The position numbers and the translations under genes were made by a program. From assembly GCA_963813135.1 (NCBI GenBank), contig CAWEXY010000021.1, forward strand, positions 96,001-160,000: DNA of 64,000 bases, in the 5' to 3' direction. The DNA is from an uncultured Verrucomicrobiae bacterium (GTDB taxonomy: Bacteria; Chlamydiota; Chlamydiia; Chlamydiales; Rhabdochlamydiaceae). Of this stretch, positions 49,855-50,689 are shown one piece after another; within the stretch, counting starts at the first letter, position 1, and each line of letters opens with the position of its first letter. Under the pieces are notes generated by a model, which was not told the DNA's origin, searched no databases, and saw nothing but the letters and a program-made list of their open reading frames with translations.

Positions 49855-49915
49855 CATAGTCCCCCACGGCGACTGTTGTGGGGAAGCTACGGGCTCCGGC
49901 CCGTAGCACGTTTTT
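49855..49915 (+). ncRNA. Structured RNA repeat, copy 1 (two hairpins plus U-tract)
   Basis: CATAGTC-CCCCACGGC-GACT-GTTGTGGGG-AA-GCTACGGGC-TCCG-GCCCGTAGC-ACG-TTTTT. Confidence 0.6.
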
Positions 49916-49924
49916 AAAGAAAAT

Positions 49925-49954
49925 TTGCAAAAAAATATCCCGTCTTTGTATAAT
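49925..49954 (+). promoter_or_regulatory. Sigma70/sigma66-type promoter
   Basis: TTGCAA (49925-49930), 18-bp spacer, TATAAT (49949-49954); predicted +1 at about 49960-49961. Confidence 0.7.
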
Positions 49955-49959
49955 TATGT

Positions 49960-50020
49960 CATAGTCCCCCATGGTGACCCCATGGGGAAGCCACGGGCTC
50001 CGGCCCGTGGCACGTTTTTT
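49960..50020 (+). ncRNA. Structured RNA repeat, copy 2; leader of the NYN gene
   Basis: CATAGTC-CCCCATGG-TGACC-CCATGGGG-AA-GCCACGGGC-TCCG-GCCCGTGGC-ACG-TTTTTT; compensatory changes relative to copy 1. Confidence 0.7.
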
Positions 50021-50032
50021 AATAGGAAGTCT

Positions 50033-50689
50033 GTGAATCGTCAACGTGTCACCTCCTTTATAGATGGACTTAATCTTTATCATGCAATAGCAAGCCTTCA
50101 TCGCCCAGAATTGAAATGGACCGACTTAAGAGCCCTTTCAAAAGTATTTCTAAAATCACATTCTGAGGAACTTTCCCACGTATATTATTTTTCGGCTCAA
50201 GCAGAACATGTCGCGGAACAAACGCAAAAAAATCAAAAAGCTTATATTCAAGCTTTGAAACTTAGAGGTATAACACCTGTTCTCGGTTATTTCAAAAAAA
50301 GACATCGATGTTGTCCTTCCTGTGACCATCGATGGTTTGGACATGAAGAAAAAGAAACTGATGTCAACATAGCCCTTTTTCTTTTAGACCTTGCTTATCA
50401 GGATGCATTCGATCGAGCTCTTGTCATTTCAAATGATTCTGACCTTGCCCCTGCTATACAGATGGTTAGGAAGCGCTTTCCTAAAAAACGCATCACTACG
50501 ATTGCCCCTCTCCGTTACTATCATAGTATCGAACTCATCAATGCTTCTTCTGATAAAAGTAAGATCCGTGTTGAACATCTTGAGCGTTGTCCTCTACCTC
50601 TTGTTGTGGCTGATCCATCCGGCTTAATCTCCGTATCTCGACCCCATGAATATATGCCCTCTAACACCGCCTTCGCTTCAACACTATGA
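50033..50689 (+). CDS. NYN-domain (LabA/DUF88, PIN-like) ribonuclease
   Basis: GTG start after AGGAAG; FIDGLNLYH, EEKETDVNIA and ISNDSDLAP acidic motifs intact; CPSC insert. Confidence 0.9.
   Translation: MNRQRVTSFIDGLNLYHAIASLHRPELKWTDLRALSKVFLKSHSEELSHVYYFSAQAEHVAEQTQKNQKAYIQALKLRGITPVLGYFKKRHRCCPSCDHRWFGHEEKETDVNIALFLLDLAYQDAFDRALVISNDSDLAPAIQMVRKRFPKKRITTIAPLRYYHSIELINASSDKSKIRVEHLERCPLPLVVADPSGLISVSRPHEYMPSNTAFASTL

Follow-up and report, generated by a model that had tools for sequence, protein, structure and literature searches.

The window analysed here, a 64-kb stretch from the genome of a presumed environmental chlamydia, contains between mfd and efp a module that consists of a structured RNA unit in two copies, a promoter and a gene for a NYN (PIN-fold) ribonuclease (Table 1). 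Copy 2 of the RNA follows the promoter, whose -10 box ends 11 nt ahead of a conserved CCC, a spacing that recurs in most homologues, and the NYN gene starts just past the U-tract of this copy. Copy 1 lacks its own promoter, the best match being 6/12, and may serve as a terminator of upstream transcription. Both copies fold into a double hairpin at -36.2 kcal/mol (copy 1; z = -5.9) and -37.5 kcal/mol (copy 2; z = -6.0), and no equally stable structure was found among 200 shuffles of either. Scored against a covariance model of homologous leaders (R1), copies 1 and 2 reach 56.9 and 75.4 bits, respectively. A preliminary description of this DNA had proposed the two copies, their layout (two hairpins with an AA joint, ACG and a U-tract), the TTGCAA-18-TATAAT promoter and the ribosome-binding site with its GTG start; all were recovered at the positions originally given, and the differences between the copies that preserve base pairing are visible in the sequences.

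Table 1. Features of the NYN module and its 5' surroundings in the window
Feature	Position	Strand	Description
MITE-like genome-wide repeat, ~117 nt	49234..49350	.	5' side of the leucine-rich-repeat remnant; outside the module
Leucine-rich-repeat ORF remnant	49293..49742	+	Inserted between mfd and the RNA; outside the module
RNA unit copy 1	49855..49915	+	Hairpin 1 49862-49883, AA, hairpin 2 49886-49907, ACG, U5
Sigma70-type promoter	49925..49954	+	TTGCAA-18-TATAAT; 10/12 match
RNA unit copy 2, promoter-linked	49960..50020	+	5' GUCC, hairpin 1 49967-49987, AA, hairpin 2/terminator 49990-50011, ACG, U6; U-tract end 50020
Ribosome-binding site	50024..50029	+	AGGAAG; read off the sequence
NYN (PIN-fold) ribonuclease gene, 218 aa	50033..50689	+	GTG start at 50033; PADLOC HEC-09 family

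The space before copy 1 is filled by the leucine-rich-repeat remnant, which is missing from the orthologous locus of the same genus, and by the 117-nt repeat. The repeat matches the genome at 27 places, of which 13 span nearly its whole length with 98-100% identity. Its short end hairpins resemble the ends of IS200/IS605 elements, so that it is probably a recently active MITE. A 151-nt contig from a public run is identical to positions 49842-49992. It runs from copy 1 through the spacer into the first part of copy 2 and so speaks against a misassembly; its depth is about 2, and it may derive from the source sample. The same-genus orthologue contains a single RNA unit, of which hairpin 1 is that of window copy 2 and hairpin 2 is that of window copy 1. 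Because a terminator and a promoter lie between the two window copies, they do not constitute a co-transcribed repeat array. Copy 1 had been described as either an extra antitoxin unit or a relic. Given that it lacks a promoter and that the orthologue is single-copy, it is most likely left over from a duplication of promoter and RNA such as that in the related genome G098, rather than a co-transcribed antitoxin repeat. Copy 2, about 55-60 nt in length, is the candidate RNA antitoxin.

The NYN gene is the sole NYN match in its genome. The only Pfam match of its product is NYN (PF01936; E 6.7e-12, 46.6 bits, cut-off 24.2), and the monomer model (pLDDT 94) adopts the NYN fold, with Foldseek matches to VPA0982 (2qip; E 2e-9) and the MARF1 NYN domain (E 2e-6). 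Sequence searches with the protein gave nothing under E 0.1 in the PDB and 0 matches in NCBIfam. The acidic motifs, described earlier as intact, indeed make up an acidic active site, and D11, D110, D135 and D137 are invariant across 31 aligned homologues. The protein also matches the PADLOC profile HEC-09 (PDLC04163, for which no curated cut-off is given) with an E value of 2e-49 and 166 bits, and residues 4-206 align with profile positions 2-201 of 203, which places it in the HEC-09 family over the profile length. A basic β-hairpin bears the cysteine pair C94-x-x-C97. When two copies were modelled together with zinc, the interface included C94 and C97 from each chain; the contacts agree by at least 97% between runs, and pLDDT is at least 87. 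This model scores 0.79, compared with 0.02 for the best control. Of 30 solved pairs, 20 attain the mark applied to the dimer score, as does 1 of 23 single chains. The modelling thus supports a homodimer. By analogy with AbiF and ToxIN, we infer that the protein would act as a toxic RNase.

The RNA unit is conserved far beyond the window. In its general form, it spans ~55 nt and comprises a 5' AUCC, a hairpin, 2-3 nt, a second hairpin and a U-tract. Protein matches were found in 31 of 301 genomes of the phylum. Outside the window genome, the unit is located directly upstream of 31 of the 32 long NYN homologues of Chlamydiota, a count that is circular because the same loci trained R1, and the only long homologue without it is the most distant one (37%). 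The U-tract of the chlamydial units begins 9-24 nt ahead of the start codon. With up to 105 candidates scored per genome, R1 matches 27 of 30 NYN-positive genomes, which is again circular, and 3 of 20 NYN-negative genomes; the latter matches do not exceed 28.5 bits and resemble plain terminators. Among metagenomic loci, whose proteins share 40-72% identity, the unit is found just upstream on the same strand in 60 of 80 and on the opposite strand in 2, at a match threshold of E 0.003 or better and with at least 2 of the 80 repeating training loci.

A shape descriptor, composed after the motif had been seen, detects the unit before 58 of 77 metagenomic homologues, in none of 71 regions that follow NYN and before 0 of 600 host ORFs sampled from 1,009. 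The same descriptor recognises 13 of 47 viral loci, and two hairpins can be discerned by eye in more of them; the viral contigs yielded 1 weak locus in a single-protein scan and 49 in an alignment scan. The unit precedes homologues in alpha- and gammaproteobacteria, on plasmids and on viral contigs, and similar leaders are present in Alteraurantiacibacter, Methylobacterium and the 3.5-kb E. coli plasmid NZ_CP075745.1, whose version was found in 4 of 5,426 E. coli genomes. A promoter match of at least 8/12 lies 6-14 nt upstream in 23 of 38 homologous leaders. Five loci (L031, L055, L063, L068 and L069) lack a recognisable unit or have a different leader. Canonical NYN/LabA-DUF88 proteins, such as VPA0982, MARF1 and the Bacteroides fragilis NYN protein, share the fold and the catalytic aspartates with the window protein but differ in two respects: the CxxC hairpin is a feature of most of the window clade (129 of 143 tree members), and the descriptor finds the unit before 0 of 28 canonical genes (the best-scoring PF01936 genes of Pseudomonadota). 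The available part of PMC5499597 gives the LabA-like NYN cluster as being of unknown function.

A second conserved two-hairpin leader was observed in L056, L070-L073 and L077, which form a sister NYN clade from Thermus and Pseudomonadota; an Rfam search with the leaders of L056 and L071 gave no match. Separately, a further model (R2) produced two matches in 150 Pseudomonadota genomes, one ahead of a NYN gene and the other, probably a terminator, past a groEL-like stop codon. This search says little because 35 candidates were scored per genome and the known carrier L004 was missed. In the window, positions 61726-61803 match R2 weakly (20.4 bits; E 0.037), were not recovered in the whole-genome search and probably represent a terminator.

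The paired positions of the unit covary. In an alignment of 39 leaders (A1), 11 of 16 pairs show two-sided changes, and 96% of cells are paired, compared with 32-43% when the partners are slid. In a second alignment (A4; 58 rows, fitted to the structure of the model), 14 of 16 pairs covary, and the two alignments together give 96-98% paired cells against 25-43% in the slid controls. The earlier expectation that homologues would retain an upstream structure is thereby borne out, both by the occurrence of the unit and by the covariation of its pairs. Hairpin 1 contributes 5 of its 7 pairs in A1 and 6 of 7 in A4. In A4, G-U pairs outnumber A-C pairs by 96 to 8, which fixes the transcript strand. 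Ahead of hairpin 1, U-C/A-A-U-C-C is strongly kept in A4, and AUCC is still present in homologues with protein identities as low as about 30-40%. The covariation that was observed is explained by the two nested hairpins. Their mean pair probabilities in the 58 sequences are 0.93 (hairpin 1) and 0.95 (hairpin 2), and since both dominate the ensemble, no equilibrium switch is evident. In a test for an antiterminator, in which the 3' arm of hairpin 2 was blocked, its 5' arm paired upstream in 46 of 58 sequences, a count that includes untranscribed flank and has no control. In L246, a hairpin-rich insert of ~120 nt occupies the hairpin 2 loop, and both stem arms are intact relative to L245. The window has no Rfam match at the gathering score, and only three chance-level matches (E 0.7-8) surround the motif. 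The leaders of 39 different related loci gave no Rfam match except abiF in L157 and L165. The search of Rfam suggested at the outset thus found the unit to be absent from Rfam 15.

Variants of the leader are informative about the function of the RNA. In ten loci, a single promoter is followed by three units in tandem. The final unit of these arrays has 6-7 U residues in the next 8 nt, compared with 2-5 in the 18 inner units that were parsed correctly; parsing of the first unit went wrong in L203 and L241. Because the inner units lack a full U-tract, hairpin 2 and the 5' UCC are kept where neither a terminator nor a start site is needed. All three-unit arrays belong to one clade (support 0.84), which indicates a single origin. 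Two-unit leaders were recognised by eye in L058 and L265. These data bear on the view that the unit is no more than a leaky terminator, which shields a slightly harmful gene or lowers its expression, with hairpin 1 as an inherited leftover. Hairpin 2 with its U-tract is indeed a standard terminator, which the weak R1 matches in NYN-negative genomes resemble. The covariation of hairpin 1, the retention of AUCC in distant homologues and the arrays of non-terminating units nevertheless render this view extremely improbable.

The RNA unit is inverted in two separate protein clades (L160/L161 and L269/L273), which corresponds to two events. The inverted units have their own TTGAC -35 box on the opposite strand beside the NYN start, pointing away from NYN, and because of this reversal and the separate promoter, the sense unit is outside the NYN mRNA. 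In two array loci, the promoter is followed first by an Rfam abiF RNA and then, in the same leader, by three NYN-type units (abiF RNA of L157, positions 315-351, 47.6 bits; L165, positions 1272-1309, 39.7 bits; cut-off 37). No abiF gene was seen among the ORFs of these loci, which were scanned in part, and the combined leaders are possibly a shared antitoxin or decoy cassette. The array, inverted and second-type labels on the protein tree were assigned by hand because automatic leader labels were noisy.

RNase E and RNase III limit their own levels via their mRNA leaders, and NYN could likewise bind or cut the hairpins of its own leader, limiting itself and leaving the free RNA as a by-product. 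Most members do have the unit in their 5' leader, and in Chlamydiota it lies close to the start codon, as noted above. In L245, L250 and L287, hairpin 2 lacks a U-tract and overlies the likely ribosome-binding site, and the failure of HEC-09 to provide phage defence (see below) also suits such autoregulation. However, inverted copies with their own promoter cannot serve as a sense leader, the triple arrays and the co-transcribed abiF RNA better match a titrating RNA, and the dominance of both hairpins in the ensemble leaves no equilibrium switch evident. We therefore consider autoregulation through the leader unlikely.

The array units are constant in structure and varied in sequence, as might be anticipated if the RNA were a cofactor, scaffold or guide that NYN loads or processes to gain activity or specificity. 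Precedents exist: according to the available part of PMC11346440, the CRISPR-associated NYN protein of Bacteroides fragilis trims crRNA and does not act as a toxin, which also speaks against the toxin-antitoxin reading favoured here; in the available part of 10.1101/2025.04.15.648962, AbiF together with its RNA is presented as ancestral to Cas13. On the other hand, the units have no variable single-stranded spacer, their bases are mostly paired and most loci contain a single unit, which makes a cofactor or guide role quite improbable. The RNA antitoxin reading is favoured over a plain attenuator by the arrays, the inverted copies, the abiF RNA within arrays and the persistence of RNA units beyond their NYN genes.

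This persistence is apparent from the 46 strong matches in relatives. Thirty-one precede long NYN genes and 6 precede 5' fragments of NYN genes; one each is associated with an interrupted NYN gene, with a few leftover codons and with a tandem promoter-plus-RNA duplicate, and for the remaining 6, no remnant of NYN was seen within 1.5 kb. The window genome contains two further strong copies without NYN, at C13:76286-76350 (+) and C18:55629-55694 (-), which share no synteny with intact modules elsewhere among the loci compared. We take the former to lie between groES and a putA-like gene and the latter to follow a GNAT pair, or the reverse. The association of the motif with NYN genes holds in the comparison of NYN-positive and NYN-negative genomes and is broken by 6 of the 46 copies in relatives and by these two. 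Retention of the RNA after loss of the enzyme fits an antidote and also a useful promoter or terminator; the asymmetry is unspecific because loss of the leader also removes the promoter. A genome-wide repeat was considered as the identity of the unit and was ruled out by its 4 strong copies in 1.83 Mb, in a search that scored 150 of about 430-470 candidates.

The module appears to be mobile and self-contained. Its neighbours differ in almost every genome, and of 24 related genomes, only two, which share the genus of the window, have a NYN gene upstream of efp. Some copies reside beside integrases, IS1595 transposases or phage-like genes, and on several small enterobacterial plasmids the NYN homologue is almost the sole cargo. 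Among 111 flanking ORFs of at least 100 aa, none encodes a recurrent partner, so that no protein antitoxin was found in this size range, and L001 has no room for a partner gene. Given this mobility, the hairpins could act as DNA, forming an end at which recombination or transposition mobilises the NYN cassette and leaves orphans and duplicates as scars. Promoter-plus-RNA duplications and orphans do exist, and on one contig (L126; G197:C79) a pair of near-identical units, separated by 2,030 nt, encloses NYN and an arginine-repressor gene (argR). Yet the promoter spacing, the U-tract and the strand-specific G-U pairs suit a transcript, no conserved far end was seen by eye past NYN, and no recombinase recurs, while the adjacent IS1595 transposases and integrases can explain the mobility. 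A DNA end is accordingly very improbable.

The candidate RNA antitoxin and its enzyme can be compared with several known systems. Like AbiF/AbiD with the abiF RNA (RF03085), the module comprises a promoter, a short structured stem-loop RNA, an intrinsic terminator and an RNase gene, and the two have in common one or several motif copies, a dimeric RNase (here modelled) and carriage by prophages or plasmids. They differ in that the enzyme of the module has a NYN/PIN fold with aspartate catalysis instead of a HEPN domain, that the last hairpin of the NYN unit is itself the terminator and that antitoxin activity is a candidate function here. In the available part of 10.1101/2025.04.15.648962, RCd22, an RNA of the abiF motif, neutralises AbiF in cis and in trans through direct binding. 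The order of RNA, terminator and endoribonuclease is also that of ToxIN/AbiQ, CptIN and TenpIN, as presented in the available part of PMC12283969, and, as in classical type III loci of that account, a promoter, an RNA and a Rho-independent terminator directly precede the gene in the window. Tandem RNA units between promoter and terminator, a further classical feature, are found in one NYN clade (the 10 three-unit loci) and not in the window. Unlike the classical RNAs, the NYN units model as two plain hairpins rather than a pseudoknot, and most NYN loci, the window included, have a single unit per promoter. The window protein has NYN as its only Pfam match and as its fold, in place of the ToxN/AbiQ, CptN or TenpN families, and neither an Abi_2 match in the protein nor an RF03085 match in the window was obtained; the module is therefore not a member of the ToxIN, CptIN, TenpIN or AbiF systems.

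The HEC-09 family itself is a defence candidate. The window copy belongs to the same protein family with a MARF1-like NYN fold but is located between mfd and efp and not within an Hma system. Payne et al. cloned one HEC-09 with ~150 bp of upstream sequence where possible and added an inducible promoter; in the available part of that work, the clone protected against no phage tested and is not one of the systems reported to be toxic when induced (10.1101/2024.01.29.577857). The terms 'non-coding' and 'ncRNA' have 0 occurrences in its main text. The anti-phage role suggested in the preliminary description thus runs against the one published test, in which the HEC-09 gene was perhaps cloned together with its own inhibitor. 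The DUF3800-, drum- and skipping-rope-type motifs, given as being of unknown function in the available part of PMC5737381, resemble the NYN unit in combining a structured RNA, a 3' terminator and one protein domain in either orientation, and differ from it in the protein; the NYN unit, moreover, has no Rfam match. NYN, LabA and DUF88 are absent from the main text of that paper, as is NYN from the main text of 10.64898/2026.09.22.753630. A literature search, with subscription journals and supplements mostly outside its range, found no partner RNA for NYN or HEC-09.

Taken together, the module most likely works like the ToxIN and AbiF systems, and we regard it as reasonably probable that it is a type III module of the AbiF kind built around a PIN-fold enzyme. 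It would be a stand-alone mobile toxin-antitoxin module of RNA and protein, in which the promoter gives rise mostly to a short terminated RNA and rare read-through yields the NYN mRNA. The RNA would be in excess over NYN because the proposed transcript is mainly terminated and seldom read through. The folded unit, with its single-stranded AUCC and two close hairpins, would bind the NYN dimer and keep it inactive, probably through the basic CxxC hairpin and the active-site side of the protein. Upon a stop of host transcription, caused by phage or stress, or upon loss of the element, the RNA would decay first, and the freed NYN would cut cellular RNA and bring about growth arrest or addiction. 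This course of events, from an abundant short RNA through an RNA-bound inactive dimer to its release, is somewhat better than an even prospect in our judgement; its transcription, RNA excess, binding, inhibition, toxicity and trigger are drawn from analogy with the characterised systems. The earlier proposal of a short terminated RNA that partners NYN in a type III-like layout is upheld with respect to the kept structure, the co-occurrence and the arrays, inversions and abiF insertions, and is not supported with respect to a co-transcribed array in the window.

The module is probably a widespread RNA-antitoxin system whose structured RNA family is missing from Rfam 15 and spans Chlamydiota, Pseudomonadota, plasmids and viral contigs. 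To our knowledge, RNA-antitoxin systems employ ToxN-like or HEPN (AbiF) enzymes. If the proposed mechanism is true, an RNase of the NYN/PIN fold restrained by an RNA of 55 nt would be a third type of enzyme to have arrived independently at this arrangement, and a small nuclease that RNA can switch. A more far-reaching version is tentative and, in our view, rather doubtful: PIN-fold NYN RNases may have evolved RNA antitoxins independently of ToxN and HEPN enzymes and would then make up a widespread class of RNA-controlled RNases not listed before, with the units as modular parts that form arrays processed by the NYN dimer at AUCC junctions, flip in orientation, persist as orphan immunity RNAs and recruit abiF RNA into a shared immunity or decoy cassette.

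Two further observations were made elsewhere in the window. At 57001-58128, a low-complexity ORF of 375 aa internally repeats a segment of about 60 aa and has no Pfam match above the cut-off. At 43112-45725, a gene that we take to be alanyl-tRNA synthetase-like is present as two ORFs (43112-44674 and 44697-45725), which reflects a frameshift or an assembly error.
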